The notes under the pieces are model-generated. The model was not told the origin of the DNA. It saw only the letters and a list, made by a program, of their open reading frames with translations, and made no database searches. The position numbers and the translations under genes were made by a program. Positions 8,939-54,908 of a stretch of 64,000 nucleotides of DNA are shown piece by piece (the first letter of the stretch is position 1; each line of letters opens with the position of its first letter). Origin of the DNA: Marsupella aquatica (Eukaryota > Plantae > Marchantiophyta); assembly GCA_973895155.1 (NCBI GenBank), contig OZ316893.1, positions 25,285,520 through 25,349,519 on the forward strand, written 5' to 3'.

Positions 8939-9396
8939 TATTTTCCTTGGAGTTCAATTCAAAGACAATTCAATTCCATATTTTGACACATCATTTGTCC
9001 AAGTTCATTGAAATCGGTCCATGACTTTCGTGCACGATTGTACAAGTTGACTCAAAATTGGTTCCCTGCCAGTGCACAACTCGCAAGCTGTGTTTTGAAT
9101 TGACTTTAATAAAATGAAAAACGTTATTACAAAATGCTCCTTTCGGAGGTTCAGCTGAACCAAGCCACTACAAAAATGCCTATAAACCTTTCAAGCCTGA
9201 TGTACAAAATGCGAGCATCGTATGCCCTGAGAAAATTGAAGCACTGTGTGCAGACCATGGTCTGCTAAATCTGAATGCCTCCACTACCTGCATTGTGGCA
9301 AAATTCTAAACCAACATATTTTCTAATTCTGCTACAATTCTATTCCTCTCAAACTTCATAACATTCTAGTCAGAGTGTGCTTCCCAACGATGCCCA

Positions 9397-9849: not shown

Positions 9850-10255
9850 AGACACAAGCAAGGATGGGTTGCTGACTGGAGTATGTAATTACCCAAGCTA
9901 AGCAGTGAGAACTTGACTTTGCACAATGCGAAACACTCAGGGATAACAAAAAGTGAACTGGACAATTGTGCTCTCTGGCTTCAAATGGTGATGTTTGGTA
10001 CCTGGGAGTGGGAATGGGAATTACATTGGATTCCCAAGGTGCACAGACAGGCCATTAGATTCCCAACATTCCACAAAGCCCAATGTTCACGCATCCCTAC
10101 ATTGCCTGAAAAGCCAACGTATGTCACACATGGGAGCGCTATCCTCTCTCATGAGTTGACATGACATGTCCCCTATTCTTAATTATCTGAATTGATACAA
10201 GTTGTCTTCTGTCCTTTCAGTCTCCAATGGGCCTTTCAGACCCCTAGCCACATAA

Positions 10256-11683: not shown

Positions 11684-12197
11684 ATTGAGAACTGGTCACA
11701 CATGAGAATTTCTGGCAAAGCACGAAGTGCGTGATGAGCGATGGCATTCGACACTACCACGAGCATGAGAACCAAACCCTGTGCAGAGCGCGTAGGGTCA
11801 ACTGGACTCGACGTGGCTAGTTCGAACCAGGCCGAGGGCAGTTTGAACCCTGGTTTTTAGAGGATGGCGGTCGGGAATCCCACTACCGCTGGAGATGAGA
11901 GTCCCGATGGCGGTCGGAGGAATTTTACGGTGTCAAATCGTACAAGGTAAATTTTGGGTTGGAGGTCAGCAACCTCCAAACCGTTGGAGATGCTCAGGGG
12001 TACCGTTGATGTCTATTGGGGTGAGGCTAGGTGCACTGGGTGTATCTCTTTGCCCTCACAGCCCTAGATGGCCTGCCATCCCGTGAGTTTTCAATTGCTG
12101 AAAGTGCTATCACCTCCTAGACAGGGAGGCATGAAATTCCCCTTTTGTCATGCCGAGGGACAGTGCCGCTTGTGCACATCGACATGTCCCTCGCATG

Positions 12198-12672
12198 TGT
12201 TGAGCATAGACGACGATCGCAACGGCAAGCCCATGAACCATCCAACGCACAATAGTCGACACAAGAGATACGTGGTTCACCTCCTTGAGGCTACGTCCAC
12301 GGGAACACACAAGAGAGCTTTACTGAACTCTAAGCCCGTCGGCTATACCGAGTCTCCACAGTGTAAGCTCTCCCTATCTCTCAAGTGGCTCCATAACAAT
12401 GAGCCTTGGTTCTACCTCTCCAAGCACACATGCCTCTTATGATATAGTGTGCAACTTAGTTGTACCTAACCACATAGTTGTACCTAACCACATAGTTGTA
12501 CCTAACCACATAGTTGTACCTAATCACGTAGTTGTACCTAATCACGTAGTTGTACCTAATCACGTAGTTGTACCTAACCACGTAGTTGTACCTAACCACG
12601 TAGTTGTACCAACCCACGTTGTTGTACCAACCACGTCATACCTAACCTAGACGTAAGAGTAAATACCCAACA
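12198..12672 (-). repeat. Copia 3' LTR (475 bp)
   Basis: tgttgagcatag...aatacccaaca; identical by eye to the 5' LTR except for one extra 18-bp unit. Confidence 0.95.
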
Positions 12673-12683
12673 ATCTTCCCCTT
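12673..12683 (-). promoter_or_regulatory. Copia polypurine tract
   Basis: Minus strand AAGGGGAAGAT immediately before the 3' LTR. Confidence 0.85.
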
Positions 12684-12863
12684 GACTCTGGTCTAGGGGA
12701 GAGTAATACTGCCAATGTATATGATCCCTCAGCGGGAAGTTCTGGACAGAAACCAAACCGGTTTCCCTCTCTAACTAGAGCAAACCAGAACTAAGCCGTA
12801 GCCTAATACATAGGAATGAGGAAGAGCATATATCAGTAATTACAATGAATGTTTAAGAAAACT

Positions 12864-15800
12864 CTACTTGTGATGCAATTGCAAAACCTGCAATACGTCA
12901 CGGTGTCTAGAGAAACTCTCCAAAGGAATCACTTTGGTAAATGCGTCAGCCGGGTTGAGTTTACCATCAATCTTGACTAGCTCAAACAATTTATCAGACA
13001 CAGCCTGCCTGATAAAATGGTACCTGACGTCAATGTGCTTCACTCTGCTGTCCATCACCTGGTTCACAGCAAGGTGGAGCGCACTTTGACTATCACAATG
13101 GAGCTTCACATTCCCCTGTGGCAATCCCATTTCAGTGATAAGTCTATCCAACCAAATCGCTTCCTTTGCTGCTTCCGCAGCTGCAACATACTCCGCTTCT
13201 GTAGTAGACTGAGCAATACACTTCTGCAAAGTAGACCTCCAACTTATGCATCCACCGCCAAGTGTGAACACGTATCCTGTTGTTGATCTCCTTCGGTCCA
13301 AATCTTGTCCATAGTCAGAATCTACATAGCCAATCAATGATCTAGCATTCTTTGCATTCGCATCAAATAAAAGACCATGATCCACGGTACCCTTCAAGTA
13401 CCTGATAATCCACTTCACTGCTTCCCAGTGTACCTTCCCTGGATTCGACATGTACCTGCTCACCTTGCCCATAGCCATGGCAAGATCAGGTCTAGTGCAA
13501 GTCATCAAATACATGAGACTCCCCACTGCCTTGTCATATGGAACCTTTGACATCAACCCCTTCTCTGTGTCATCCGTAGGACAGAACGCTGATGATAACT
13601 TGAAGTGTGGAGCCAACGGGGTACTTACTGGCTTGCTATTCTCCATGTTGAACCTTGCAATTACCTTCCTCGCATAACTGCTCTGCGTCAACCATAGCTT
13701 GCCAGCCTCCAAGTCCCTAGTGATCTTCATACCCAAAATCCTCTTAGCTGGCCCTAAGTCCTTCATCTTAAACTCTGCACTAAGCAGTGCCTTGAGCTTA
13801 ACAATCTCAGACCTATCCTTGGCTGCAATTAGCATGTCATCCACATAAAGTACTAAAACAATGAACCCAAAGACAACATTCTTCACCGGTTTCAAATACA
13901 CACAAGGGTCAAATACACTTCTGTGAAAACCTTGTGACCGAATCCAATCGTCAAACCGCTTGTTCCACTGTCTTGGTGACTGCTTCAACCCATACAAGGA
14001 TTTCAGCAATCTGCAAACCAATTCCTTCTGTCCTCTCTTCACAAAACCTAGCGGTTGTCTCATGAAGATCACCTCTTCCAATGTGCCATAGAGGAAAGCT
14101 GTGACAACATCCATCTGATCTAGGAGCAGACCAAACATTACAACAAGTACACACAATAGTCGTATTGTAGAGTACTTAGCAACTGGTGAGAAGACCTCAT
14201 TGTAATCCACACCTTTCTCTTGTGTGAATCCCTTTGCTACCAATCTAGCCTTGTAGACCTTCGATCCACCTCCTATGGAATTATCCTTCAGCTTGTAAAT
14301 CCACTTGCTGTCCACCACTTGCTGACCCTTAGGCAGCTTAACAAGCTCCCAAGTTTTGTTGTCCTTTAGTGACTGCATCTCCGTTTGCATTGCTGCAGTC
14401 CACTTCTGCTTCTCTTTTGAAGCACTTGCCTCATGAAATGAAGAAGGTTCTCCTTCTTCCAAAATTAACGCATCACCCTCATCATCAGCTGTAAAATCAT
14501 CCTCTTGCAGTTGAGATGAATCAACCCACTGTCCATACCTTGATGGAGCGCGTACAGTGCGACCAGATGTTCTTCTAGCCGATGACTCCGGTTGATCTGC
14601 GTGTGCTGGTACAATTTGAAGCTCAACAGCATCCACTTGTTGCTCACCAGCATCAACAAACTCCTCTGGTTCCTCTGGCACAGGAACCAGCTCCATAATT
14701 GGAGCAACTCCTTCTCTCCGGTCATGCACCTCATAACCAATCTCCCCCTCAACGAGATCCGGGATAGGAGATTTTCCTTTGTCAGTACGGGAGACCTGAG
14801 TATTCTCCCCCTCCTTCAATAATCTGGATTCATTGAAGGAAACATCCCTACTGACAACGAGCTTACAGGCAATAGGATCCCATAGCCTATAGGCTTTCAC
14901 ACCACTCTGGTACCCAAGAAAAATACATTTCCTGGAGGTAGGATCCAACTTGGTCCTATTCTGCTTTGGTGTGAGAGCATATGCATCACTTCCAAAAAAT
15001 TACCAAGCCATGATAGTCTGCTTGCCGCTTATAGCGCATCTCAAACGGCGTTTTGAAATTGATAGCACTAGAAGGAGAAAGATTTACCAAATAAGCTGCG
15101 GTATTGACAGCTTCTGCCCAAAATTCTTGTGGTAAACCTGATTGGCTCAACATACTCCGTGACCGCTCCAACAGTGTCCGATTGAGCCTCTCAGCGACAC
15201 CATTCTGCTACGGAGTATAAACTGTGGTGAGATGGCGAGTTATCCCCTGTTCTGAACAGTACTCTTCAAATTCCATTGAAGTGTACTCCCCGCCGTTGTC
15301 TGACCTCAGACTCTTCACCCTTGTATCCAAACACTTGATCGTGTTTCCAGTCTGATTCTCCACCTGGGCCTTCCACTTCTTAAAAATGGACAAGACATCA
15401 GACTTATGCGTCATGAAATAAATCCACACAAATCTTGAGTAATCATCAATAAATGATACATAGTACAACTTTCCAGAGTGTGAGGGAGTCGGGGATGGAC
15501 CCCACACGTCACTATGTATGTACTCAAGAACCGCTTTGGAACGATGAGTTCCAACACCAAAAGCACGACGATGCTGCTTTCCAAGAATGCAATGCTCACA
15601 AAACTCTAATTTACAAGATTGCAAATCAGAAATGAGTCCATTCTTCCGTAAGATAGCCAAACCCTTCTCACTCATGTGGCCTAGCCGTGAATGCCACAGT
15701 TGAGTCATCTCCTCGTGAGACTTGGTTACATTGGCCTCTCCACATACAGTATTGCCCTGTAACACATACAAATTCTTTTGTCTACTCCCCTTCAAAATCA

Positions 15801-17172
15801 CTGTCTCTCCCGACCTGACTTGAAGTTCACCATCAATAACGCTCCATTGATGACCATTTGAATCCAACACACCGAGTGAAATCAGATTCTTACGCATGCC
15901 AGGTACATACCTGACTCCGGACACTGTGCGCACAGCGCCATCAAACATTTGAATCTTCACAAACCCAATTCCCTCAATTTGACAGGAGTGATCATTTCCC
16001 ATCAGAACTGAACCGTTTGAAATAGAGTAAGAACTGAAAAACTCACGAATGTAACAAATATGAAAAGAGCAAGCACAATCAAGAATCCACACATCATCTG
16101 CTCTCCTAGATGACGTGCACAGGGCATACCCCCGGCTTCATAAAACATACTCATCATTGAGTAAATCAGCTTCTCCATCAGCCCTAGCCACATTTGCCGA
16201 TGAAGTTTCCGCTGCCTTTCCCTTACAGTCTCGCTTGAAGTGTCCAACTTGGTTGCACTTCCAACATGTCACCTGCCTCCTCTGAGGGGATTTACCCTTG
16301 GACTTAGATCTGGATTTAGATCTAAACTGGGTTCTACGGTCCCCAGTTGGTCGCTGCATACTCCTCCCACGGTTAACATTGACGGCAGCACCAGATGATG
16401 AAGGCTGTGACGTGATGTGCATCTTCTGCTGAAGATCATCACTAAGCAGAGAACTTACCACGTCATTGTATGAAATGGTATCCCTATCACGATGCAACAA
16501 CACTCGTGATAGGGACTGGTAAGATGGAGGCAATGAACTAAGAAGCTGCAGAGCCTTCGTCTCATCATTCAAAGTCTCCCCAAGGTTTTCCAAGTCAACG
16601 ACCATGTCGTTGAAAGCATCCACATGGTCTTGCAACTTCGTACCAGATTCCTTCATCCTGAAACTCATCAGTTTGTAGGAAGTGTAGAGCCGGTTCGACA
16701 ACTCCTTGCGGTGATACTTGCTCTGCAATTCCGCAAACAAGGACATGCAATCCTTATGTGCACCTAACTGCTTGATGATGGGAGGCATGAGATAGAGTGT
16801 AACACACCACACTCCCTGCTCCTGCATGCGGTCCCATTGTTTCTCATCAACATCGTCTTCACGAGGGCTCAGCAGTTGGCCCATCCCTGACGCATAAAGC
16901 ACTCCCTTCACCTGCTTCTCCCATAGCAAGTAGTCAGAGCGCCCATCATACTTTGTCACTTCATACTTGGGTCCCCCAAGCTTGAAAGTCCCCATCTTCT
17001 TCTTTACCGTGAGCTCCGGTAGTAGTACTGCTTCCTCCACCACACGCCGCACCGGTGATGGTATCGGTGTCACGTGCTCTTCCTCCTGCTCCTCTCTCTG
17101 CCCCTGAAACCTCCGCGGTGATCCTCGTGCTTCAAGTTCCACGTCTTCAAAAAACTCCTCCGAATCACTCAT
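12864..17172 (-). pseudogene. Copia gag-pol, disrupted
   Basis: Gag with CWKCNQVGHFKRDC knuckle; PR WILDCACSFH; GAG-pre-integrase WHSRLGH; INT HSDVWGP and LRSDNGGEY; RT YVDDML; RH GYVDSD. In-frame TGA at 16138-16140, TAG at 15208-15210 (in TP[Q]QNGVAER) and a +1 frameshift in a homopolymer near 14995. Confidence 0.93.
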
Positions 17173-18312
17173 ATGAGAAAGTCACAAAAAATGTTGTTTT
17201 TCACAACTTCTCAAAAAACTCGAAACTCAACATCGCCGCGTAGCCCACAAAGCTAGGAGTCCAATACTGAAAACCAAAATCAAAATCGAAATTTGACGGA
17301 AAAGTTATTCAAATTTCGGTCGAGGTGGGTAAAACCTTGGGAAACTCCCCCGTTTTGACCACCTCAGGGAATAACCGAAATACCAAGTACAACCCGTTGT
17401 CGGAATTGCGATGTGATTGGTGCGCTGCATTGCCAACTTCAATGGCTACGACCTCGCCGAAAAATAACCAAAAAAGTTATCGTTCGGCGGATGAAATCTT
17501 TGTCGGACGATCAAAAAATAGCTCTCTGGTTTTTTGGAATATTCTATGACCCTTGTACAGGCCCTGTGGGAATTTTGGAAGAACAATCGAGGGGCTGACA
17601 TGTGTCCTCGAACCCCCAAAACCCCCTACCACCCTTCGTCGTCGAAATCTGGTCGCGCGCGCAGAAAATACACACGGCAGAATGTACCCCTCGACACCAA
17701 ACGCAAGATATCTCACTCGGGTTTTGACGAAATCAAGATCCGATTTCAGATTTGGAAACTAGACTCCGAGGCGATGAAGATCGATATAAGAAGCACCCAA
17801 AACGAGGAAAGAACGAGAGAGAAAAAAATTGGTAAAGATGACAGATTTCTCTCAATTGCCATAGCCAATTTCGAATCATTTTTTCAAAGAGAAAAAAATG
17901 GTACCTTGTCAACAACGAATGTTGATCAATTGCACTTGGTGTCGTCACCAAGTCCAACAAGGTAATTGATTTTGCTTAGCCTTCCTCTTTGCATCAAAGA
18001 GCCAATCCCGAACTCAAAAACAATCGTCTTGCCTCAATCTCTCCGTTGAGTCAAAACACTTGATGCTTCTCCCTCCGAGTCGATTGCCAACTTTCTTCAC
18101 AAAATCCAGAACGACGAAAACTTAGATCTCTCTGCACCACGAGCTCCGTTCAACGATTTCTTCACACCGTTAGAAAGCTCTTGCCCTGATCTATCCGTTG
18201 AGCCCATAAACTCCAAGTTCCATGCGATGGAACTCTGGAAAATCCACCAACACTCAACGCTGGAAAAACCGTCATGAAATCCCGTCACGAACACACGTCA
18301 CCTCCCAAGCAT

Positions 18313-18324
18313 GCTCTGATACCA
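18313..18324 (-). promoter_or_regulatory. Copia primer-binding site (initiator tRNA-Met)
   Basis: Minus strand TGGTATCAGAGC, 2 nt inside the 5' LTR boundary. Confidence 0.93.
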
Positions 18325-18326
18325 AT

Positions 18327-18783
18327 TGTTGAGCATAGACGACGATCGCAACGGCAAGCCCATGAACCATCCAACGCACAATAGTCGACACAAGAGATAC
18401 GTGGTTCACCTCCTTGAGGCTACGTCCACGGGAACACACAAGAGAGCTTTACTGAACTCTAAGCCCGTCGGCTATACCGAGTCTCCACAGTGTAAGCTCT
18501 CCCTATCTCTCAAGTGGCTCCATAACAATGAGCCTTGGTTCTACCTCTCCAAGCACACATGCCTCTTATGATATAGTGTGCAACTTAGTTGTACCTAACC
18601 ACATAGTTGTACCTAACCACATAGTTGTACCTAATCACGTAGTTGTACCTAATCACGTAGTTGTACCTAATCACGTAGTTGTACCTAACCACGTAGTTGT
18701 ACCTAACCACGTAGTTGTACCAACCCACGTTGTTGTACCAACCACGTCATACCTAACCTAGACGTAAGAGTAAATACCCAACA
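18327..18783 (-). repeat. Copia 5' LTR (457 bp)
   Basis: Direct repeat of 12198-12672. Confidence 0.95.
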
Positions 18784-19094
18784 GCATGCCCGCTAGGTAT
18801 GGTTAGGGCTAGTGTACTACTTGAGTTAGTGTCATGTTCTTGTAGCGAGTCTGGGTTGTTCTTGAAGCAAAAGGGGTTTGTTAGTGTGACGCCTGGACCC
18901 GGTCCTACTTAGGGCATGTTTTTCTTTGCCGTTCTTCAGTTCTTCTTGAATCGTTGTGAGACAGAGTTTTTCAGAGCTGCTCGTCGGTTCCGTACACGGA
19001 ATTCACACAGTGATTCGTTAGATGCTCCCGGCCGATCTTGGCATCTCGCCGGTTTTCGATTTGATTTCAATACGTTTGTTCTATCACGCCTTTT

Positions 19095-19109
19095 ATTCAA
19101 GAAGAACTG
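19095..19109 (+). promoter_or_regulatory. Putative self-priming PBS of the Gypsy-type element
   Basis: attcaagaagaactg directly at the end of repeat A1 is the exact reverse complement of cagttcttcttgaat (18937-18951) inside A1; no TGG-type tRNA PBS. Confidence 0.7.
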
Positions 19110-20766: not shown

Positions 20767-22398
20767 ATGTCAGCAGAGGGGCCGAGTCGTAGCAGCTCAT
20801 CGCCACCGACACCCAGGTACCACTTGCGGAGTGATCCACGACCGTTGGTGCCAATTTCATTGGAGTCTCGACAATTTCGCCGGCGTCAGCAGACAGCAGC
20901 AGCACCCACACCACGCAACCCTTCTGCTACATTTGGCTGTCGCTTCACCACTACCCTGAAGCCTGCTATTACATCTTTGCCCTTTACTCCTTCTGCATCC
21001 GTGGTTGTTCATGCTTCACCGACATACAGCATGGACGCCAACCACTCATCTGGCCGCATTGAACGCTTCAGCGGGCGGCCAGGCACTGTTTCTTTGCGTG
21101 AGTTCAAATCCACTTTCTACACTGTCGTTTACGAATTGGAGTTGAAGTATGGCAACAATTTCACAAATGCTTTTGCATTTAAGCAGCTAGCCAGGTATGT
21201 GCACCACGAGGCTTTGGATGTGTATGAGCAGCATTCTCAACGGTTGCTTGATGTCACACAATTGCCTAACCCTACCTATGCCACTGCAATTGCGGCTGCC
21301 TCACAACTGGCATTACAGAATGCCATTGCAGCCCATGCTGCTGCTCCTGCCACTTCCCCTCCTACTCCAGTTCCCACCACTGCACCAGTTACTCCCACTG
21401 TCTTGGCACAGGCTACATCAGGCATTTCTCCCACCATTGATTCCCCTGCCTTTGCTGATCTAGTGGCTGAGTTTTTCCAGGTTCTTGAATTGGAATTCCC
21501 AATCAAGAGTGCTGACAAAATCATGCAGTTGGCCACCTTTGTGAGGCAGCGCGATGAAACATTGAAGATGCTACATCGCCGGCTTCTCAAGCTGAAGGAA
21601 GACACCCAGAGCATCACCGACCTGGAAGCTGCTCATCGTTATCTTCGCGCATTGGAGGGCACACCAGCTCTCCATTCGCAAGTGTTGCAGCAAGTATTCT
21701 CAGAGTTTGGAGACAGCTACACCTTGCTCAATGTCTATGACACTGCTGAGAAACTTGAGTTGGCCCATGCACATTATGAGGCCAGTATTGCGCGTCCACC
21801 GCGATCCAGGTACCAGGCTGCTGCCCCTACACTGGCCACTCCTTCCCGTGTGCCACAGTATGGTTCCAAGACCAAGCCAGCACATGCTGCTTTCATGCTG
21901 CCATCTTGCAACTACTGTGGTCACCCTAATCACAAGGCTAATGAATGTGATATTGTTGCTAAGGATCTGTCTTGTGATTTTTGGAGGAAAGTGGGCCACT
22001 TGGAGGCAGTTTGTTTTGCCAAATTCCCCGAGAGGAAGCAGCTACGACAGCAGGCCACTCATCCTGCTCCTATTTCCACTCCCCCACCAGCTAGGAGGGC
22101 TCCTATTGCATCAGTTGCTCCTCCTTCCAGTGGCAAAGCACCCGGTGCTAACCAATTGCCCAAGCAGCAACAGAAGCAACCAGCTCAGAAGGAGGCTCAC
22201 AACGCACAGGCAACTCATGAGGTTGAGTCATTACGTGCCCAACTTGCCAACATCAAAGGCAAGTCCACTGCCTCTGCTGGTCCTTCTCAACCGGCTGGTC
22301 ATGTGCAACCCATCCCTGGCCCAGGCACCACTGACAGTTCAGCACCTCCACCCCGCTCTTTCTATGGCTTGCCATTTGATGCTCATATGGGTGAGTGA
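20767..22398 (+). CDS. Gag-like protein of the Gypsy-type element
   Basis: 543-aa ORF; IERFSG capsid-like start, RQRDETL motif, tandem knuckles CNYCGHPNHKANEC and CDF(W)RKVGHLEAVC. Confidence 0.8.
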   Translation: MSAEGPSRSSSSPPTPRYHLRSDPRPLVPISLESRQFRRRQQTAAAPTPRNPSATFGCRFTTTLKPAITSLPFTPSASVVVHASPTYSMDANHSSGRIERFSGRPGTVSLREFKSTFYTVVYELELKYGNNFTNAFAFKQLARYVHHEALDVYEQHSQRLLDVTQLPNPTYATAIAAASQLALQNAIAAHAAAPATSPPTPVPTTAPVTPTVLAQATSGISPTIDSPAFADLVAEFFQVLELEFPIKSADKIMQLATFVRQRDETLKMLHRRLLKLKEDTQSITDLEAAHRYLRALEGTPALHSQVLQQVFSEFGDSYTLLNVYDTAEKLELAHAHYEASIARPPRSRYQAAAPTLATPSRVPQYGSKTKPAHAAFMLPSCNYCGHPNHKANECDIVAKDLSCDFWRKVGHLEAVCFAKFPERKQLRQQATHPAPISTPPPARRAPIASVAPPSSGKAPGANQLPKQQQKQPAQKEAHNAQATHEVESLRAQLANIKGKSTASAGPSQPAGHVQPIPGPGTTDSSAPPPRSFYGLPFDAHMGE

Positions 22399-23253
22399 GT
22401 GCTGTCCTCTGCTCCACAGCCTGGCCTTACAGCAGACTTTTCAGATTCATTCTGCCCTTCTTATTTTGCTTACCAGCAGGCCAGTGTTGCCTCCCGTATT
22501 GCTCCCACACGCCGCATTGTACAGGCTGATGGTCTTGCTGCCGGTCCTATGACTAGAGCCAAGGGCGCTCGGGCTATCATGCCCCAATCTTTTCAGCCAC
22601 TCACACTTGCTGAAGAGCGCACCTTGTTGGCGAGGGGGGAGGGAGCTGCAGCTACATCCATTCCACCACCAGGTGCTGCTGACATTTCACAGGGAGTTGT
22701 TTCTCCTGAGCTGCTTGAGCATTTCACCTCCGGTATGGCACAAAGGATTCTTACAACTCCACTTTTCAGTTGCCAGGATTTACAGCTGGATGCTAGAGCT
22801 GTCATCAAAGCGCTAGAGGGCTCACTGCATTCTTCATCAGCCCCTGTGACACCGGTTTTGGAGGTCCAATCTCATGTACATACTGGACCTTCTTCTTCTC
22901 CACTGCATGCTTCCACTGGTTTGGCTATCCCAGTACCGATTTCCAGTGGTAGAGATGACAGTATTGTTGCAAATTGTGTGACCAGAGCTACACTTGATTC
23001 TGGTCATGCTGCTCCATCTTTCCTAGCTATGCTGTTGAGTGGGAAGACCATGGACACTAACTCCCTTCACAAGGTACCTCATCATTTGCCAAAAGTGGTG
23101 CCTAGTGACAGGACTTTAGTTTCCACCACCATTGCCATTGTTGACAACAGGAATTCAGCAGTCAAGTTGGAGGGTCACACTCCTCAAGTGGTCATGCTAG
23201 ACACAGGCGCTCAACTAGTGATCTTGGGCACGCCAAGAAGATGGGACTGCTGA
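22399..23253 (+). pseudogene. Pol N-terminal region including the aspartic protease active site; frameshifted relative to the rest of pol
   Basis: In frame with gag after a single TGA; VMLDTGA at ~23191-23211; shifts into the AKKMGL frame near 23230. Confidence 0.75.
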
Positions 23254-26200
23254 CTGATCATTTACAACAATCCAGGTGGCACATTCGGACTGCTAGTGGC
23301 ACTGTGGAGGATGTGCTGGGTGAGAGTTCTACTTTACTCACTCTCACTTTTAATGGAGGTACAGATCAGGAACTGCATTTCCCAGTCAGATGTTTAGTTA
23401 CCAATGCCACTACGTATGATGTGCTCATTGGCCAGGAGGCTTTGTTCCCACCAGGTTTTACCATTAACAACTGGCATGAGCATGCATACTACAGAGTTGA
23501 TTGGCATACGGATGGCTCACACTTGGGCTACATTCCACTTGATTTGCATGGTGCCCATACCCCTATGGCTCACCACTGTGTGTTGAAAGCAGTGCACACA
23601 GCTACCTATGTCAACCACCCATTGCAGGATTGGATTGAGGAGGATGATGATGAGGTGGCTATTGCACATGCTGCTGCACGTATAGCAGCACTTTCCAGCA
23701 ACGTGGATCATCAACCAGAGGTGGTACAACGGCTCCAAGCAGCCCATGGACCTTTGGTGGCTGCATTGCACAAATTTGAGGACCTTGGGCAGCATAATGG
23801 ACAACCAATAGCCCCAATCTTGAGCGCACCAGTTACATGGACTCCTCCTTCAGATGGCCTTACATTGCTTGAGCTTTTTGGTGGCATTTCTACAGGCCTG
23901 GAAGCTCTCCTAAAGTCTGGCATGGTGGTGAAGCAGTACATCTATGTGGATATTGATCCAGGTGCAAGGCAAGTGGCTGAATCCCATATGCTGGAATTTT
24001 CAGAGCGATTTCCCCAGCAGTTTCCACATAGTGCATGGAAGTCTGCATTTTCTTTCTTCCCTCCAGATATCCAGCTTGTCCAGCACCGGCACTTAACCCT
24101 TCTTGGCTCCCTTGATTTGATCATAGCTGGTTGGGAATGCCAAGGGTTTTCAGCTGCTGGTCACGGTGCTGGACTGCATGATTCTCGTTCTGGCCTTTTC
24201 ACAACATTGGTTCAGATTCTCACCTGGGCTCAATCCCTTTATCCTGCTGTTGGTTATATCCTTGAGAATACTCCATCTCAGTTTGACCAGCGTCCACAGG
24301 TCAAAGAGGATTTCAGTGTGGTCCAGCACTACTTGGGACCACCCCTTCTCATTGATGCAGTGCACTGTGGTTCTTATGCACATCGTCTTTGTAACTTTTG
24401 GACTAACCTTGCACCACCTTCCTTGTTGGAGATGGCTCTTCACCACACATCCAGGGACACTAACCTTATAGTGGACCAGATTTTGGATCCTGACAGTTCT
24501 TGCCAACCAGTTACACGGCAAGAGCCAGCACCTTGGTATCCAGCCAATACCATTGGACAACCCCGTGCTGCTTGGCCTACATTTGTGTCCTTTCCAGGTG
24601 CACATGCTTTTCAGGGTGATGGTCCTGGTCTGGTTTATCGACATTCTACCGGTACATGGGATGAACCTAGTCCTGAGGAGAGAGAACGGGCTATGGGCTT
24701 CCAACCCGGTACTACAGGTCACACCAAAATCACCAGGCTGGCCAGGAATGCTTTACTTGGCAGGGTAATGGATCTCAATGCTCTCACTTGGCTTCTGGTC
24801 ACTTGCATCCTTTTTCAGATGTACATTCCTCCAGCATTAGGAGCTCCAGCCTTACCTCTCCACAGTGCTGCCGCATGGCATCCAGACCAGGTGCACTTAC
24901 CTCTGTCCAACACTCACCACTTCAGTCCAAGTGTTGGGGGGGAGGAGGTCCCTTGTAATGCGGCTGACATTATTTCTGAGTTTCATGGTGTGGACCACTT
25001 TAGATCAGCAGGTACAACAGGCCTTGGAGAGGCCTCATCACCTTATCAGCAACATGCTAGCAGCTTGGACAGTGGAGAGGCTGGCACTTCTGGCTCTTCT
25101 GGCTCTTCAAGCACGAGTACATCAGGTCCTATTCCTAGTGTTGCCAACTACACATTTATCATGGGCAACCACCTGAGTAAAAGACAGAAGGACCAGCTGC
25201 TGAATTCGCTCCTCAAGCATGAGAATGTGTTTGCTTTCTCTATGAAGGACTTGGGTAAGTGCAAGACTATGCAGTTCTCCATTGAGTTGGCTGATGAAAC
25301 ACCTATCTTTAGGCGGAGACACCGTTTGAGTAAGCTTGAGTGGCAGCTGGTGGATGAGAGGTGCCAAGAGCTTTATGAAGTTGGTCTTATTCAGCCATCT
25401 ACATCAGATTTTGCGGCAGCTACAGTGATGCCAGCAAAGAAGGATTCCAGTGGATTGTGGACAGAGAAGCGCATGTGTGGGGACTACAGGCCATTGAACC
25501 TGGTCACACCCCAGGACAGGTACCCCATGCCGCGGCCAGAGGAGCTATTTGACAGCATTGGAGACTCAGACATCTTCACTCTTGTGGATCTAAGGCAAGG
25601 CTTCAACCAGATTTTGCTGCTTGCAAAGGATCGCAAGAAAACAGCTTTCCATGGTAGTAACCAACTATGGGAGTGGTTGGTGATGCCATTTGGCTTGAAG
25701 AATGCGCCCATATTCTTTCAAAGAGTCATGGACCAGGTTCTGCAAGGTGCTGAGTTTCTGAAATGTTACATTGATGATGTGTTGGTCCACAGCAAAGGAT
25801 TTGACCAGCATCTACTTGACCTTGAGGAGCTATTCATGAGGCTTAAGAAGGTGAACCTAAAGATACACCCCAAGAAGTGTGAATTTGCTGTCAGATCAGT
25901 AGTATATCTTGGGCATCGCATTCTTCCAAATGGAACCATGGCTCACTGGGCCAAGGTGGTATCCATCTTGGAAATGCCCACTCCTACCGATGTTCACACT
26001 TTGAGGAGTTTTATTGGGTTGTGCAATTACTACCGGATCTACATCAAAGATTTCAGTACCATTGCACACCCATTGTATGCTTTGTTGAAAAAGAATGTGA
26101 CTTGGACATGGAGTACAGATGTTGAGGCAGCATTTGCCACTTTGAAGGAGAAGCTCTCAGAATACCCGGTGCTGAGAAGACCTGATTTCAGCAAGGTCTT

Positions 26201-28139
26201 TGTGTTACACACAGATTGGAGTGCCCTTGGGATTGGTGCCATTATGGGCCAGCATGATGAGGAAGGTAAAGAGTACGTCATTGCCTATGCATCCAGGAGC
26301 AACAATCAGGCAGAGAGTCATTATTCTTCTTATGAGGGTGAATGCCTTGCTGTTGTGTGGGCTGTCATACATTACAGGCCCTACCTCTATGGGACCAGGT
26401 TTGTTCTCTACACCGACCACCAGCCCTTGAAGTGGTTGATGACCAACGACAAGCTTACTGGCAAGCTTGCTCGTTGGGCGCTCATACTCCAGGAGTATGA
26501 TTTTGAGGTAATTCATAGGCCTGGTGTGACACATCAAAATGCTGACACTATGTCCCGCAGCCCTTTGATTGCCTCTGATGATCCCTCAGATGCACGGCAG
26601 GATTTTGACCAGGTTTCCATCCTGCCTACATTTCATGCATCTACCTATCTTGCTTTGCTGCCATGCTACATTGTTGACCAACCTGTGGTGGACATATGGG
26701 AGGACAGCGACACTCTGAGATTTCTGCAGGATGGGGAGTACCCCACCCATGTTACTGCTGCCCAGAGAGACCAAATTCAGCAAAGGTCCAAGCGCTACTT
26801 GTGGAAGGGAGATCATCTTGTGCGCTGCTTGCCAGACAGGGAAGTGGTGGTTCCACCCATTCATGAGAGGGTTGGCCTTATCCGTAAGGTACATTCTGAG
26901 CTTGGTCATTTTGGTGTTAAGAGGACTTATAGCCTCTTGGTCCCCCATTATCATTGGAGAGGCATGCATGGCCAGGTTCGAGATGTTATTGCCCGGTGTG
27001 AGCAGTGTGATAGGGTAAGGACTTCTTTCACATCTTGGCAACCCACACTTCATCCACTCCCTATTCAGGGCATGTTTTATCGCTGGTCATGTGATTTGGC
27101 TGGAGAATTACCCCTCACGTCTCGGGGTAATCTCTACATCATGATCATGATAGAGCATTTCTCCAAGTGGATAGAACTTGTGGCATTGCCGGATAAGACC
27201 TCCCGTAGCACCAGCCAGGCATTCCTACAACAAGTTCTTAGCCGCTTTGGAGCTTGTGCAGAATGTCTCACTGACCAGGGATCAGAGTTTAGAGGAGAGT
27301 TCCAGGAGCTGCTTGATCAGGCCCTCATTGATCATCGCCGAACGTCACGAGATCACCCACAAGCAGATGGCTTGGCAAAGCGCATGGTTCAGACATGCAA
27401 GAAGGGTCTCTGGAAGATCTGCCTCACCAAAAATAAGGAGGATTGGGACCTGGCCTTACCCTACATTGCCATGGGGTATAGGATGTCCAGACATGCATCA
27501 CTGTCTAACTTTTCTCCCTACTTCTTGTTGTTTGGTCGTCACCCAGTTCCACCTTCTGCTATTGCTGCTCACATGCTTCAGGTGGTGGACTTGGATTCAG
27601 CTGTGACTTGGTCTGATGTGATCTCTGAGAGGGCTGCCCTATTCAGGAGGGTTATGCCCATGGCCATGGAGAATTTGGCCATTGCACAGCATAGGGACAC
27701 ACTGCGTTATGCACACACACGAGGGGGCACCTTTCAGCCCAAGGTCAGGAAGTTTGATGTAGGAGATTTTGTGTACTTGCAGCGGCAAGCTAACGACACC
27801 CTGGACACCTCTACCAGTCGTACTATTCTCAGGGTTAAAGCTATTCGACCGTCTGGAGTGCTAGAGTTACAAGGGGCAGATGGGCGCACAATTGTTGACA
27901 ATGCCAAGATTTGTGCCCCTTGTCATCTGCCTAACCTGGATCCCACCATTGTGACTTCTACCTGGATTCCACCTGTGGACTACCCTTGCAAAGTGTGTTT
28001 GCGAATTGATGATGCTGACCAGATGCTGCTGTGTGATAATTGCAATGGAGGGTACCATCTTTTCTGCCTTCGGCCTGAACTTACCCAGGTGCCAGAAGGG
28101 TTATGGTTTTGCCCTTCCTGTGCTCCACGTGCTACCTGA
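23241..28139 (+). CDS. Pol polyprotein: PR C-half, C5 cytosine methyltransferase, RT, RNase H, integrase, PHD finger
   Basis: YDVLIG (PR); LELFGG, IAGWECQGFS, YILENT, AHRLCNFWTN, ERERAMGF, LLGR (DNMT, ~23859-24790); MPFGLKNAP and YIDD (RT); LHTDWS, YTDHQPL, NADTMSR (RH); HSELGH...CEQC, SCDLAG, LTDQGSEF (INT); C4HC3 at 27987-28121. Confidence 0.93.
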   Translation: MGLLTDHLQQSRWHIRTASGTVEDVLGESSTLLTLTFNGGTDQELHFPVRCLVTNATTYDVLIGQEALFPPGFTINNWHEHAYYRVDWHTDGSHLGYIPLDLHGAHTPMAHHCVLKAVHTATYVNHPLQDWIEEDDDEVAIAHAAARIAALSSNVDHQPEVVQRLQAAHGPLVAALHKFEDLGQHNGQPIAPILSAPVTWTPPSDGLTLLELFGGISTGLEALLKSGMVVKQYIYVDIDPGARQVAESHMLEFSERFPQQFPHSAWKSAFSFFPPDIQLVQHRHLTLLGSLDLIIAGWECQGFSAAGHGAGLHDSRSGLFTTLVQILTWAQSLYPAVGYILENTPSQFDQRPQVKEDFSVVQHYLGPPLLIDAVHCGSYAHRLCNFWTNLAPPSLLEMALHHTSRDTNLIVDQILDPDSSCQPVTRQEPAPWYPANTIGQPRAAWPTFVSFPGAHAFQGDGPGLVYRHSTGTWDEPSPEERERAMGFQPGTTGHTKITRLARNALLGRVMDLNALTWLLVTCILFQMYIPPALGAPALPLHSAAAWHPDQVHLPLSNTHHFSPSVGGEEVPCNAADIISEFHGVDHFRSAGTTGLGEASSPYQQHASSLDSGEAGTSGSSGSSSTSTSGPIPSVANYTFIMGNHLSKRQKDQLLNSLLKHENVFAFSMKDLGKCKTMQFSIELADETPIFRRRHRLSKLEWQLVDERCQELYEVGLIQPSTSDFAAATVMPAKKDSSGLWTEKRMCGDYRPLNLVTPQDRYPMPRPEELFDSIGDSDIFTLVDLRQGFNQILLLAKDRKKTAFHGSNQLWEWLVMPFGLKNAPIFFQRVMDQVLQGAEFLKCYIDDVLVHSKGFDQHLLDLEELFMRLKKVNLKIHPKKCEFAVRSVVYLGHRILPNGTMAHWAKVVSILEMPTPTDVHTLRSFIGLCNYYRIYIKDFSTIAHPLYALLKKNVTWTWSTDVEAAFATLKEKLSEYPVLRRPDFSKVFVLHTDWSALGIGAIMGQHDEEGKEYVIAYASRSNNQAESHYSSYEGECLAVVWAVIHYRPYLYGTRFVLYTDHQPLKWLMTNDKLTGKLARWALILQEYDFEVIHRPGVTHQNADTMSRSPLIASDDPSDARQDFDQVSILPTFHASTYLALLPCYIVDQPVVDIWEDSDTLRFLQDGEYPTHVTAAQRDQIQQRSKRYLWKGDHLVRCLPDREVVVPPIHERVGLIRKVHSELGHFGVKRTYSLLVPHYHWRGMHGQVRDVIARCEQCDRVRTSFTSWQPTLHPLPIQGMFYRWSCDLAGELPLTSRGNLYIMIMIEHFSKWIELVALPDKTSRSTSQAFLQQVLSRFGACAECLTDQGSEFRGEFQELLDQALIDHRRTSRDHPQADGLAKRMVQTCKKGLWKICLTKNKEDWDLALPYIAMGYRMSRHASLSNFSPYFLLFGRHPVPPSAIAAHMLQVVDLDSAVTWSDVISERAALFRRVMPMAMENLAIAQHRDTLRYAHTRGGTFQPKVRKFDVGDFVYLQRQANDTLDTSTSRTILRVKAIRPSGVLELQGADGRTIVDNAKICAPCHLPNLDPTIVTSTWIPPVDYPCKVCLRIDDADQMLLCDNCNGGYHLFCLRPELTQVPEGLWFCPSCAPRAT

Positions 28140-28171
28140 CTTTTCTTCAGCCCTCCTTTTAGCTGTGGTCT

Positions 28172-28178
28172 GGGGGGG
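28172..28178 (+). promoter_or_regulatory. Putative polypurine tract (G7) of the Gypsy-type element
   Basis: G7 run about 30 nt after the pol stop, abutting the start of repeat B1. Confidence 0.6.
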
Positions 28179-28373
28179 ATACAGAGGTTTACACCTCCAC
28201 TACGAACATACCACCTCAGTTGCTTTTTCTTGGCACTTGTGAATGTGATTGGACTTTTTCTATGCATGTTGGTTGCTAGCAGCTTGCACATATGCATAGC
28301 TTGCACATATGCATTGCTGGTGACTTGTATGTTTTCGATACACTATATGGCTACGATACTATATGTCACGACA
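28179..28373 (+). repeat. Repeat B1 (195 bp, with an internal 17-bp duplication)
   Basis: atacagaggtttacacc...tatatgtcacgaca; matches 28737-28914. Confidence 0.92.
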
Positions 28374-28375
28374 GC

Positions 28376-28736
28376 TGTCATGCCGAGGGACAGTGCCGCT
28401 TGTGCACATCGACATGTCCCTCGCATGCCCGCTAGGTATGGTTAGGGCTAGTGTACTACTTGAGTTAGTGTCATGTTCTTGTAGCGAGTCTGGGCTGTTC
28501 TTGAAGCAAAAGGGGTTTGTTAGTGTGACGCCTGGACCCGGTCCTACTTAGGGCATGTTTTTCTTTGCCGTTCTTCAGTTCTTCTTGAATTGCTGTGAGA
28601 CAGAGTTTTTCAGAGCTGCTCGTCGGTTCCGTACACGGAATTCACACAGTGATTCGTTAGATGCTCCCGGCCGATCTTGGCATCTCGTCGGTTTTCGATT
28701 CGATTTCAGTACGTTTGTTTCTATCACGCCTTTTAT
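28376..28736 (+). repeat. Repeat A2 (361 bp)
   Basis: tgtcatgccgaggg...ctatcacgccttttat; matches A1. Confidence 0.92.
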
Positions 28737-28914
28737 ATACAGAGGTTTACACCTCCACTACGAACAAACCACCTCAGTTGCTTTTTCTTGGCACTTGTGA
28801 ATGTGATTGGACTTTTTCTATGCATGTTGGTTGCTAGCAGCTTGCACATATGCATTGCTGGTGACTTGTATGTTTTCGATACACTATATGGCTACGATAC
28901 TATATGTCACGACA
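28737..28914 (+). repeat. Terminal repeat B2 (178 bp)
   Basis: Second copy of B, ending ...cacgaca and followed by the TSD cttt. Confidence 0.92.
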
Positions 28915-29054
28915 CTTTCCTATATCAGTGGCCATGACAAATGATTCATAAAAAAGTCAGCAATCAACATGTCTCAAAGCTGCCTTATCAAGGAGACTAC
29001 CAACGCCAATGCTACTTCTCTATATATGTACACTAGCTCAATACCCATGCGTTG

Positions 29055-37234: not shown

Positions 37235-40200
37235 ATGGCGGCCATCAGTAGCGTTGCTGCAGCAGGTGTGTTGGCGGCAACGAGCGCCGTGCGCCACCGT
37301 GCCGAGCGGACGAAGGCTTGTAAAATTTCTTCAGTTGCTGCCTTTCAATCGGCGGCCCTGACCCCTGTGTCTGCAACGAGGAAGTCTTCTACTTCTTCGA
37401 GTGCGAGACGTCAGGTGGTGTGCTCGGTTGCTGCTACCCCCGCACAGTCGACGCGATCTCAATCGACCGAGGTCGTCGGGAGGCCGACGATCCTGGTCGC
37501 GGAGAAGCTCGGCGAAGCAGGACTGGAGCTGCTGAAGAGCATTGCCAACGTGGACTGCTCCTACAATTTGTCGCAAGAGGATCTGTGTGCGAAGATCTCG
37601 CTCTGCGATGCATTGATCGTGAGGAGTGGCACGAAGGTCACGAGGGAGGTGTTTGAGGCGAGCAAGGGGCGCCTGAAGGTTGTTGGTCGTGCGGGGGTGG
37701 GAATCGATAATGTGGATCTCCAGGCCGCCACCGAGGTCGGATGTCTGGTGGTGAATGCACCGACGGCGAACACGATCGCAGCAGCTGAGCACGGAATTTC
37801 GTTGCTCACTGCCCTGGCCCGGAATGTCGCCCAGGCGAGCGCATCATTGAAAGCTGGTCAGTTCTTCATCCCACCCGCCCTGTTTTCCACTGCGTAGAAT
37901 GAAAATCAATTTGCTTTGAGCGATGACCACATAGCCTTTCAAGTACTCTGTTTTCCATTTCTTAGAACGAGAAAAAGTGATGACCACATGACTATTCCAC
38001 GTTCCTCGTTAGTCAATTATCAGTACCGTCGCCCTTTTTTAGGCTCGCTCTCTTTTACTTGTTTCCACTCTGTTGGAAAACCAGGAATTCAGATCACCTT
38101 GATATGTTTAGAATTGTGTCGATTCACACCAGTGTACTTCCGTGACCTACCGGTGCATATGCCGTCTGCAGTATCCTTGTAGTTGCCTCTTTCCATATTT
38201 TCACGAAGCTGCTCTTTGCCTATTCTCAAGGAGTTGGGTAGTTTTGCTACTTTTCCTGGCACGGATTGTAAGAATTTTCGTGTCTTTGCCATGCTTATTT
38301 GAAGCACTCATCCTGTTGCTTGAGTCAATTTTTTTCCTGACTATAGCTGTAAGTGGCCATTTCTATCCCACAGTACCTTTTGCAGTAGTAAGTTGCTTGG
38401 CTGTCAACTCCTAAATCCGATTCCTGTTGATGAAGTCCTGAGATTTTAGGATGTTTGGTGGAGAATTGTCTGGCGAAAGTGTTTTCTGTGATGTCTTGCC
38501 GACCTTGGGTTTTGCTTGAGGACCTGTTCCAGTCAGCACAAAAATTGGAGTCCGCAATCCAGAACCCAAGGAAGACAGTAAAGTTGGCAAGTTTAATGAC
38601 CTTGTTTTTCGAGCGTGAATTTGGTGCATTCCTTAGTTTAGTCTTTCAGCAGTTCTCAATTGTGTCCATTTCATCCCAGTTTCACCTTTCGCCAGAAAAT
38701 TAATCCTACGAGGCAGCGTGGCGCTGTAGTACTCTGAGATCAATTTCTTGAAAAGATCTGGTTCAAAGGAACTCTAGCTCAAACTTTGTTTGAGCTTTGG
38801 GAATCGAATATATCCTCCTAAGTTTTTCCCATTTATACACAAGACTGAGGATCGCAGCAATTTGGAACTGACATTTGTATTGGCACAATGCTTGCTGGTT
38901 ACCGTATTTTGCAGGAAAATGGATGCGCAACAAGTATGTTGGAGTGTCTTTGGTCGACAAGACTATTGCTATAATGGGATTTGGAAAGGTCGGCTCGGAA
39001 GTAGCCCGCAGAGCCAAGGGTCTTGGCATGGTCGTCATTGCCCACGATCCTTACGCTTCCGCTGATCGGGCCCGAGCAATTGGCGTGGAGCTCGTATCCT
39101 TCGACGACGCGTTGGGTCGCGCTGATTTTATCTCACTTCACATGCCACTTACCCCGACAACCAATAAAATATTCAACGATGAAAGTTTTGCTAAGGTGAA
39201 GAAAGGTGTCCGCATCGTCAATGTGGCCAGAGGGGGTGTTATTGATGAAGACGCATTGGTGCGTGCTCTTGACAGCGGAATTGTTGCTCAGGTAAGTACT
39301 CGACCCAGCCATCATGTCTGTAAATCTTGTAAGAAGATATAGATGGACGAGGCGTGAAGTTAATATGAGAGGCTCATTATGGTTCCCACAGGTGACAACA
39401 ATTCTCCAAACCCTGAGCTCTGAGCAGCCATAGCTTCTTTCTCTTGTTAAGCCGTGGATTTGAATTTCATTCATCCTTTCTCTTTTATGACCCGGAATTG
39501 CAGGCCGCATTGGATGTGTTCACAGTGGAACCTCCAGAGAAGGATAGCAAGTTGGTCCAGCATGAGAACGTTGTTGTCACTCCTCATCTGGGTGCCAGCA
39601 CTACGGAAGCGCAGGCAAGAACGCACTGCCTACCTCCGTTGTTGTATCCACAATGATTACCTGGAAAGCCTGGGATCTGCCTGCACTTTCTTGTGTGTGA
39701 TTTTGACGGTAGACATTCTGTACGACTTGATTGTAACTGTGGTTCTTGAACTGCAGGAAGGTGTAGCCGTTGAGATTGCAGAGGCTGTCGTCGGAGCCTT
39801 GCAGGGCGAACTAGCAGCTACAGCTGTCAATGCTCCTATGGTTCCAGCTGAGGTGTGTATGATACCTGTCTTCCTTCAGTACATAAGCAGTGCTCGCCTC
39901 GCTTTCATGTGAGACTTTCATACGCAGTGGGAAGAATGTAGGGCTTGTGAAATCATTTACTTGTATAGGATGGGAGAACTGAAAAGCCAATTGATCACGG
40001 TCTCTGTGGTACATTTCAGACCTAGTTGTCCATCCAATGTTCAGTGATCATACGCTGATCGTAACTGTGTTAAAGGATGTAAATGATGATCCGAACACTG
40101 AGTCATCGAGGGACGATTGAGCCTAGAGCGAGGCAGTTTTCTATTACCTGCTTTGGTTTATGACTCATTTGCACCAAGTGAAGGAATAGCTGGAAATAAA

Positions 40201-41111
40201 GACTAGGTTAAATTGGTGTACTTGGTCCCTAATTCACGGTATAATAGATTAAATTTCTGGATGACTGAAAATGAACTTTTATAAGCCTTGAGCACTGTAA
40301 AGCTCTGAAGATCCCCTGTCGAGGAGAGCATTTTCTCTTCTGTGTCGTTTGTGATCTGACTCTTGCCTCTGTCGTGCGATCAAGAGTATTGATTGCCTCG
40401 TCGAATACTATTCTGATCGAGTGTTACGGCCATGTTGAGCAGGTCTTGGCAGAATTGGCACCATACGTCACTTTAGCCGAGAGGCTTGGTAAGCTGGCAG
40501 TGCAGCTGGTTGGAGGTGGTGGTGGTGTAAGAGATGTGAAAGTGACATACACCTCTGCCCGCGCGGATGACGAACTGGACACGCGTCTACTCCGAGCTAT
40601 GATCACCAAAGGGCTGATTGAACCTGTATCCAGCGCCTTCATCAATCTCGTTAATGCGGATTACGTTTCTAAGCAAAGAGGATTGCGGATCAGTGAGGAA
40701 AGATGCCCCTCTGAAGGCCCTGTTGAGATCCCACTCGAAAGCATCGAGGTGAAGATCTCTAATGTGAATTCCAAGTTTGCCACAGCTACCTCGGGTGGTG
40801 ATATTACCCTCGAGGGGAACGTGAAGGCTGGAGTCCCCTACCTCACAAAAGTAGGCAGTTTCGATGTTGACATCAGTCTGGAGGGAAGTATCATCCTGTG
40901 CAGGCAAGTTGATCAACCTGGCATGATTGGGAAAGTTGGCAACTTGCTCGGGGAGGAGAATGTCAACATCAGCTTCATGAGCGTAGGCCGAGATTCACCT
41001 CGCAAGCTGGCTATCATGGCCATAGGTGTTGATGATGAACCAACCAAAGACGTTCTTGAGAAGATTGGAGCCATTCCAGCCATTGAAGAATTTGTGTTTC
41101 TCAAGCTGTAA
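37235..41111 (+). CDS. PGDH: D-3-phosphoglycerate dehydrogenase, plastid-targeted; exons 37235-37856, 38915-39291, 39504-39614, 39757-39852, 40443-41111 (624 aa)
   Basis: Ser/Ala-rich transit peptide; [31 protein letters not shown]; C-terminal ACT domain DQPGMIG; exon phases join without stops. Confidence 0.96.
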
Positions 41112-54600: not shown

Positions 54601-54908
54601 CTCATGTGCATTTTAAGATCGGCTTGCCGACAAGAGAATGAATCCGTCCTCGCGAGTTTGAGAGGGCCCCTACGGTCGTCTCTCCCATCCAAGTCCATCT
54701 CTGATCGGCACTGCTTAAGGGGGTTCAGGCCAGGCGACATTGAGCCAACCGATGTCGGAGGCATGTTGTGGTGCCCGGGCATTCTCCCACCGCGGTGATG
54801 GTTGTCAGTCAGGTCAGATGTTAAAGACGACAACGATCGCTCACTGTATCCTAGGGCACTGCTCGATAACCCAGCTGTCGCAGCTGCGGAGCTGTGTGAG
54901 AAGTCCAT
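51669..54908 (-). CDS. GRF: Growth-regulating factor transcription factor; exons 54908-54356, 53825-53598, 53376-52884, 52680-51669 (761 aa)
   Basis: QLQ ([20 protein letters not shown]), WRC ([36 protein letters not shown]), FFD, TQL and GGPL motifs; GT-AG introns with consistent phases 1, 1, 2. Confidence 0.95.

Follow-up and report, generated by a model that had tools for sequence, protein, structure and literature searches.

A Gypsy retrotransposon with a DNMT3-like methyltransferase domain in a liverwort genome

The benefit that a retrotransposon draws from a silencing enzyme of its own has been a question since 2018, the only Gypsy case being algal, with a domain that was inactive in yeast. 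The locus described here raises the question in a land plant: a 64,000-nt stretch of DNA from Marsupella aquatica (contig OZ316893.1; hereafter the window, with positions counted from its first letter) contains, at 12146-28914, a Gypsy retrotransposon whose Pol includes a C5 cytosine DNA methyltransferase (DNMT) domain of the DNMT3 type. The Gypsy-Dnmt3 family was already known, from a green alga (KnitGypsy-Dnmt3 of Klebsormidium nitens; PMC5890265, de Mendoza et al. 2018; this and the other papers are cited from portions of their text); what appears to be new is a member in a land plant, a leafy liverwort. That the element belongs to this family is close to certain. The preferred reading as a whole, which we consider probable, is that the window holds a copy of a streptophyte Gypsy-Dnmt3 retrotransposon, the intact members of which would, before inserting, methylate the cDNA that they have produced, likely at CG.

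The survey table of PMC5890265 lists seven embryophytes and no liverwort, according to a 2019 opinion paper land plants 'such as tracheophytes' lack methylase-encoding transposons (PMC6338049), and two further sources (PMC12344493; bioRxiv 10.64898/2026.05.21.726589) speak of 'streptophytes', a term which may or may not cover bryophytes. No report of a land-plant member was found in the literature searched, outside which lay most subscription journals and Repbase Reports.

The methyltransferase domain and its family

A sequence-only reading of this DNA had placed a DNMT3-like domain at 23859-24790, embedded in Pol between protease and reverse transcriptase (RT); the bounds adopted here (Table 1) extend somewhat beyond these. 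The domain shares one open reading frame (ORF; 23145-28139, forward strand, 1664 aa) with RT, RNase H, integrase and a C-terminal PHD finger. Motifs I, IV, VI, VIII, IX and X are all present in this frame, in linear, unrearranged order, as that reading had listed them, and the catalytic Cys had been correctly located. Motif VIII, quoted as AHRLCNFWTN, is likewise present, but its second Arg, found in 187/189 relatives, has been lost here; similarly, the position between protease and RT holds as an order for the family, but not as an unbroken frame, this copy being broken near 23230.

The Pfam model PF00145 matches with 25.9 bits on the whole protein and 29.2 bits on the domain alone (cut-off 22), and, of the relatives with a solved structure, DNMT3A matches best (E 1.9e-6 with the single sequence, 8e-27 with the family profile). 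The predicted structure of the domain reached a predicted local distance difference test (pLDDT) value of 97 and a predicted template-modelling score (pTM) of 0.94; in the fold search, all 32 matches listed are DNMT3A/B/C catalytic domains, the best one with an E of 1.3e-18 and a TM of about 0.7 of the query, at an identity to DNMT3A of about 21%. A profile built from 60 family members gave 97 bits for DNMT3A, 87 for DNMT3B, 46 for DRM2, 43 for M.HhaI and 24 for DNMT2. With PF00145 above its cut-off, the DNMT3A match and the fold, the resemblance goes beyond chance, and by profile bits and fold the domain is DNMT3-like, nearer to DNMT3 than to DRM, the bacterial enzymes or DNMT2. Two of the checks proposed by the earlier reading, the PF00145 search and the structure prediction, came out for the DNMT3 affinity that it had suggested. 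No DUF3444 match was found in a Pfam scan of the element proteins.

The full library was scanned, with 254 clusters recovered at E up to 1e-30. For the alignment, 190 domains including the present one were used, all of them 250 aa or longer; it excludes shorter pieces and the cluster members P0308-P0364. The catalytic Cys of motif IV and the Glu of motif VI occur in 189/189 relatives and the two Arg of motif VIII in 188/189 and 187/189, and the S-adenosylmethionine (SAM)-binding Gly is nearly invariant. The idea that EC in place of PC marks a decayed enzyme was rejected, the residue before the Cys being Glu in 102 of the 189 relatives and Pro in 73; by this alignment, EC for PC appears to be the norm of the Gypsy-Dnmt3 family.

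The domains that follow the protease form a clade of 45 (support 0.999; position read in 34/45), with Marchantia polymorpha, Closterium spp. and K. nitens as named members, while the other 145 stand after RNase H wherever their context is known, the named members being the chlorophytes Haematococcus and Cymbomonas. A maximum-likelihood tree of 53 sequences, from which nine near-duplicates had been dropped beforehand, keeps the Klebsormidium-Closterium-Marchantia-window clade (Shimodaira-Hasegawa-like approximate likelihood ratio test, SH-aLRT, 91.6). The K. nitens member is one Gag-protease-DNMT protein, GAQ93235.1, which may not be a published named KnitGypsy-Dnmt3 copy; its place in the clade bears out the kinship with charophyte retrotransposon DNMTs that had been anticipated. 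Among related PHD-bearing Gypsy elements the domain takes two positions: in the larger sister group it stands between RNase H and integrase, as read in 111/243 domain-bearing proteins and likely in 21 more, and in P0370 of the post-RNase H group it is missed by Pfam. The RT tree, being without an outgroup, gives no order of the two positions.

A metagenome scan found 256 relatives, of which 80 loci (53-76% identical) were kept, several of them being the same insertion in different assemblies. The order Gag-protease-DNMT-RT-RNase H-integrase-PHD is complete in 33/80 and, as far as each locus reaches, another order occurs in 0/80; RT is 64-86% identical between this copy and these loci. RT matches without DNMT were 0/61, a biased count, since the loci had been fetched by DNMT. 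The median ratio of nonsynonymous to synonymous substitution rates (dN/dS) between this copy and the related loci was 0.090 for DNMT (47/80 comparisons unsaturated; a rough value, with dS near saturation), 0.092 for the protease, 0.088 for RNase H and 0.27 for the linker, as well as about 0.05 for RT and integrase, where few comparisons were unsaturated. These ratios point to purifying selection in the DNMT domain, which appears to be a fixed trait of the family. Horizontal transfer between bryophytes has been considered as a source of the kinship.

At least six near-full-length annotated ORFs of the family, all named hypothetical, lie on chromosomes 2, 4, 5 and V of M. polymorpha. In the P0013 cluster, Marchantia ORFs of about 1280 aa encode Gag-protease-DNMT and end without RT, several of them on the V sex chromosome. 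Moreover, in the host itself, single contigs of run X3 with a word depth of 1,200-1,700 cover protease, DNMT, RT and integrase alike (compared with 15-26 for two other contigs listed), which suggests many near-identical copies, DNMT included, a contig depth being no copy number.

KnitGypsy-Dnmt3 combines DIRS-like repeats with Gypsy domains (PMC5890265). The present element resembles it in its intronless, unrearranged Dnmt3 domain within a Gypsy Pol, the order RT-RNase H-integrase, the split DIRS-like repeats and purifying selection, but has a land-plant host; the DNMT domain is 33% identical to that of K. nitens GAQ93235.1, with WEC here and FPC in the K. nitens protein. The dinoflagellate SymbioDIRS-Dnmt3 (Symbiodinium), which methylates CG de novo in yeast, also has Dnmt3 in the RT-RNase H frame and A...B-A-B repeats, but is an independent acquisition according to its authors (PMC5890265) and is set apart by the DDE integrase and 4-bp duplications found here. 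The host enzymes PpDNMT3a/b (PMC6453930) and animal DNMT3A/B share the linear motif order and the fold, whereas the element's domain differs in its low identity to DNMT3A, in giving no DUF3444 match, in being intronless and in lying inside Pol. Finally, Gypsy elements of Haematococcus lacustris and Cymbomonas tetramitiformis have a homologous DNMT (30-42% identical), a related RT and a PHD finger, but their DNMT follows RNase H and falls in a separate clade; that position also differs from that of the 3'-appended DNMT4-like 'EpiLTR' DNMTs (bioRxiv 10.64898/2026.05.21.726589).

End repeats and priming site

The most unusual part of the element is its split, permuted end repeats. From left to right it consists of repeat A1 (split by a nested Copia element), the internal region, B1, the bases GC, A2 and B2. 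The TG...CA ends, the 4-bp target duplication, the purine tract and the primer site are those of a canonical long terminal repeat (LTR) element, but instead of two full LTRs at the ends there is A only on the left and B-A-B on the right, that is, the split repeats A...B-A-B of DIRS-like elements. DIRS elements, the class of SymbioDIRS-Dnmt3, and PAT and Ngaro elements are characterized by a tyrosine recombinase and are not known to have a DDE integrase or a target duplication. The present element falls outside that class, with target duplications and, in the Pfam scan, an rve integrase and no recombinase match in its three ORFs. Judged by its domains it is not a chromovirus either, the place of the chromodomain after the integrase being taken by the PHD finger. 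No report on the end structure or insertion route of Gypsy-Dnmt3 was found in the literature searched, mostly without subscription journals, and for KnitGypsy-Dnmt3 the available text of PMC5890265 describes neither the end sequences nor a target duplication, the mode of priming or the route of insertion.

As B1 lies behind a G run and A1 in front of the primer site, the true LTR would be B-GC-A and the insert a circularly permuted two-LTR molecule. A G run stands before B1 in 21/21 related loci listed, and the B1-A2 spacer has two bases in 21/21 loci (GC 7, AC 6, GT 3, AT 3, GA 2), while the A2/B2 joint is exact in just 7/19. Left ends, seen in 29 loci, consist of A alone in 24 cases, have no detected repeat in 5 and include B in 0; right ends, seen in 41, show B-A-B in 19, B alone in 19, B-A in 1 and nothing in 2. 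Both ends are visible in 13 related loci, representing 12 distinct insertions, and the target duplication is an exact 4 bp in 7 of these, matches at 3/4 bases in 2 and is missing in 3, locus L071 having been read by eye. In the window, 6 substitutions and 1 indel separate A1 from A2 over about 360 nt, a near identity that points to a young insertion.

The primer site is complementary to the element's own repeat (Table 1), and ARAGORN found no tRNA in the window. None of 100 shuffles reaches the 14/14 pairing of this copy, which is present in both the minimum free energy and the centroid folds; the whole fold of 18938-19130 is no stabler than shuffles (z -0.84), the informative part being the 14-bp duplex only. 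Among 23 elements (7 duplicates having been set aside), the pairing is 14/14 in 9, 13 in 4, 12 in 7, 11 in 2 and 10 in 1, and in the worst case 30/100 shuffles reach the score. Furthermore, the duplex of this copy is set off from those of relatives by two compensatory base-pair changes. About 30 nt upstream, 20/22 relatives have a TATA box. Self-priming is known in Tf1/Sushi and Tcn1 (PMC6317226), chromoviruses which share with this element a primer-binding site complementary to their own LTR; unlike them, it has a PHD finger in place of the chromodomain, a DNMT, and permuted rather than paired LTRs.

Predicted activity of the enzyme and rival readings

This copy of the element is dead, because of an in-frame stop in gag, a protease split by a break of the frame near 23230 (in the relatives P0002 and P0310 the frame continues unbroken), a Lys at the third acidic position of the integrase (Glu in 43/53 related loci) and the change of the second motif VIII Arg to Cys. 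The last results from a CG-to-TG change in codon 24390; the Arg codon accounts for all depth in runs X1 (11 contigs), X2 (6) and X3 (1) and for about half in X5. This Arg is aligned with the essential Arg of Dnmt3a and M.HhaI, where R202A leaves at most 12% of normal Dnmt3a activity and R165A lowers the rate of M.HhaI 1e5-fold (PMC4802922), and by analogy the private change likely cripples the enzyme of this copy. The complete catalytic set (Cys, Glu, two Arg), incomplete here, is present in the family, the intact members of which quite probably encode an active methyltransferase, to judge from the conserved residues. Both essential Arg of motif VIII are encoded by CG-containing codons, each lost in 29/80 of the loci L001-L080 by deamination-type changes, so that methylation of resident copies would erode the enzyme's own active site.

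In intact members, Gag, protease, DNMT3, RT, RNase H, integrase and PHD would be made as one packaged polyprotein. Transcription would start inside A, and the 5' end of the RNA would pair with the site just after A and prime itself, in Tf1-type fashion. The product of ordinary reverse transcription would be a linear two-LTR DNA, both LTRs reading B-GC-A; its ends (ATAC... and ...TTAT) would not be integrase sites; the two cDNA ends would be joined, creating the A/B joint, and integrase would cut at the palindrome CA-GC-TG in the upstream LTR, leaving processed CA ends with two-base overhangs. Insertion as A-internal-B-A-B with a 4-bp duplication would leave A1 with the core promoter. The DNMT domain, travelling in the particle beside RT, would methylate the cDNA in cis, so that new copies would arrive marked; recognition of host chromatin at the target would fall to the PHD finger. 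Action of the DNMT on the element's cDNA is regarded as probable, and CG as its likely context, borrowed from DNMT3A and SymbioDIRS-Dnmt3; the joined-end insertion route is judged to be slightly better than an even bet. The further proposal that, in a green-lineage family recently mobile in liverworts, DNMT3 marks the CG-rich repeats (CACGACA arrays) next to the attachment site within U3, so that just one of two identical sites is cut, methylation serving integration and not silencing, is a speculation of low probability.

Several observations weigh against this scheme. Of the Gypsy-Dnmt3 domains just one, that of Klebsormidium, has been assayed, and it gave no methylation in yeast, a result which its authors call inconclusive (PMC5890265). 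The observed/expected (o/e) CpG ratio of the element, 0.20-0.32, is matched by a nearby transposase without DNMT (0.31), on which ground CpG depletion was rejected as a sign of self-methylation. From a symmetric two-LTR circle, A-B-A-internal-B inserts would also be expected, yet B was seen at 0/29 left ends. No circle or cDNA has been observed, part of the A2/B2 joint differences may be later mutation, and in this copy the conserved TATA position is without a TATA box. Finally, locus L039 (B alone) and locus L024 (B-A-B) are one insertion assembled both ways, so that assembly collapse blurs the layout counts; the notion that B-only right ends are inserts of one-LTR circles was dropped for the same reason.

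Within the same family, the DNMT could instead act in trans or at the insertion site, methylating host DNA or resident copies and so limiting spread or shaping the chromatin on landing. Self-restraint and insertion-site effects were raised in PMC5890265, the PHD finger ties Pol to chromatin, and the decay of resident copies falls mostly on CG (35% of sites) and CHG (33%) as against CHH (16%). This decay, however, is explicable by host enzymes, the fusion of the domain inside Pol in both its positions fits work in the particle, and the duplicated target 4-mers seen contain no CG; trans action is considered rather unlikely, and methylation of the target site, which had been suggested as one use of the enzyme, found no support in this analysis. 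An improbable reading is that the domain is not a DNA methyltransferase, DNA binding or base flipping being what it was retained for, or RNA or an RNA-DNA hybrid being its substrate: the negative yeast result and the replacement of the PC proline in 116/189 relatives would suit this reading, but the Cys, the Glu, the two Arg and the SAM-binding Gly hardly vary, and DNMT2, with its 24 bits, lies far under the 97 bits of DNMT3.

As regards the ends, the whole A-internal-B-A-B unit might be copied with no joined-end intermediate, the integrase trimming the two outermost CA-GC-TG sites of the linear DNA, the internal repeats restoring the tips and the A/B joint being inherited. Such copying directly accounts for the absence of B at left ends, but the self-priming site after A and the purine tract before B1 predict ordinary LTR copying, with B2 unused, and the A2/B2 joint differs among copies, so it too is given little credence. 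Lastly, a chance capture of a host DNMT3 exon by one copy, the alternative that the sequence-only reading had named, is already refuted by the presence of the domain in 80 related loci and in the host's own copies, and an algal contamination of the assembly is at odds with the target duplication, which lies on a contig that also carries liverwort genes, and with the relatives on Marchantia chromosomes; an origin of either kind is extremely improbable.

Neighbouring features, host and significance

Table 1. Position of the element, its parts and the neighbouring features in the window
Feature	Position	Strand	Basis or remark
Left target-site duplication CTTT (4 bp)	12142..12145	+	Repeated at 28915-28918
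Repeat A1, first 52 nt (left end of element, TGTCATG)	12146..12197	+	100% identical to 28376-28427
Nested Ty1/Copia element interrupting A1	12198..18783	-	RVT_2; 5-bp duplication GCATG
Repeat A1, remainder (putative core promoter and R-U5)	18789..19096	+	
Predicted self-primer at putative transcript start	18938..18951	+	14/14 Watson-Crick pairs with 19095-19108
Primer-binding site complementary to own repeat	19095..19108	+	Without the TGG start expected of a tRNA-end primer site
gag and start of protease	21031..23232	+	55% identical to unbroken relative P0002
Zinc knuckle of gag; second, degenerate knuckle	21907-21948; 21973-22014	+	
In-frame stop in gag	22396-22398	+	
Protease DTG	23197-23214	+	In gag frame, before frame break near 23230
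Remainder of protease and spacer, pol frame	23232..23834	+	Asp_protease matches in relatives P0002, P0310
DNMT3-like C5 cytosine methyltransferase domain	23835..24815	+	Pfam, profile, predicted fold, alignment
Key DNMT residues	Cys 24138, Glu 24264 (motif VI), Arg 24384	+	Cys for second motif VIII Arg at 24390
Other DNMT motif codons	I Phe 23877; VIII 24384-24392; IX Arg 24687; X Arg 24744	+	
Reverse transcriptase	25287..25934	+	YIDD at 25767; RVT_1 E 5e-28
RNase H	26109..26498	+	RT_RNaseH E 1e-37
Integrase, HHCC finger and core	26856..27554	+	Pfam; third acidic position Lys at 27378
C-terminal PHD finger and stop codon	27987..28139	+	PF00628 E 3e-11
Polypurine tract G7	28172..28178	+	Directly 5' of B1
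Repeat B1 (putative distal U3), end CACGACA	28179..28373	+	
Two-base spacer GC (putative internal integrase attachment site)	28374..28375	+	Inside palindrome ACAGCTGT
Repeat A2	28376..28736	+	
Repeat B2, right end CACGACA	28737..28914	+	A2/B2 joint: putative join of two cDNA ends
Right target-site duplication CTTT	28915..28918	+	
Host PGDH gene	37235..41111	+	Pfam and last-exon identities
Host GRF-type gene, WRC domain	51669..54941 (approximate bounds from ORFs)	-	PF08879 E 4e-22

Between the primer site and gag, the element has a long, GC-rich leader (19109-21030) with short internal repeats, which keeps its CpGs (o/e 0.73, versus the low ratio of the coding part), occurs at much lower depth than the coding part and may differ between subfamilies. 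The nested Copia element, which sits 52 nt into the Gypsy element from its left end, is very young: its LTRs, which contain an 18-nt tandem array, are identical save one 18-nt tandem unit, and its primer site is of the tRNA type. A PIF/Harbinger transposon (7472-11995), with inverted ends of at least 11 nt, a transposase ORF (10256-11695, reverse strand) and a second ORF (7970-8938, forward strand), ends 150 nt before the Gypsy element, just to the right of which arrays of about 35-nt and about 76-nt units (29030-30190) form a separate, abundant repeat.

The last exon of the PGDH gene shares 94% identity with that of Calypogeia fissa, 82% with Marchantia, 81% with Riccia and 77% with mosses, in agreement with the embryophyte host supposed from the first; a moss as host was rejected on these figures. 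By these identities the host appears to be a liverwort close to Calypogeia, which we take to be a leafy liverwort.

Bryophyte genomes hold DNMT3-type domains that have gone uncounted. The end structure of the element, moreover, points to a DDE integrase using an internal site of joined-end DNA, unlike the textbook route of LTR elements. Finally, since the family is present in Marchantia polymorpha, the question of what a retrotransposon gains from a silencing enzyme now reaches a genetic model.

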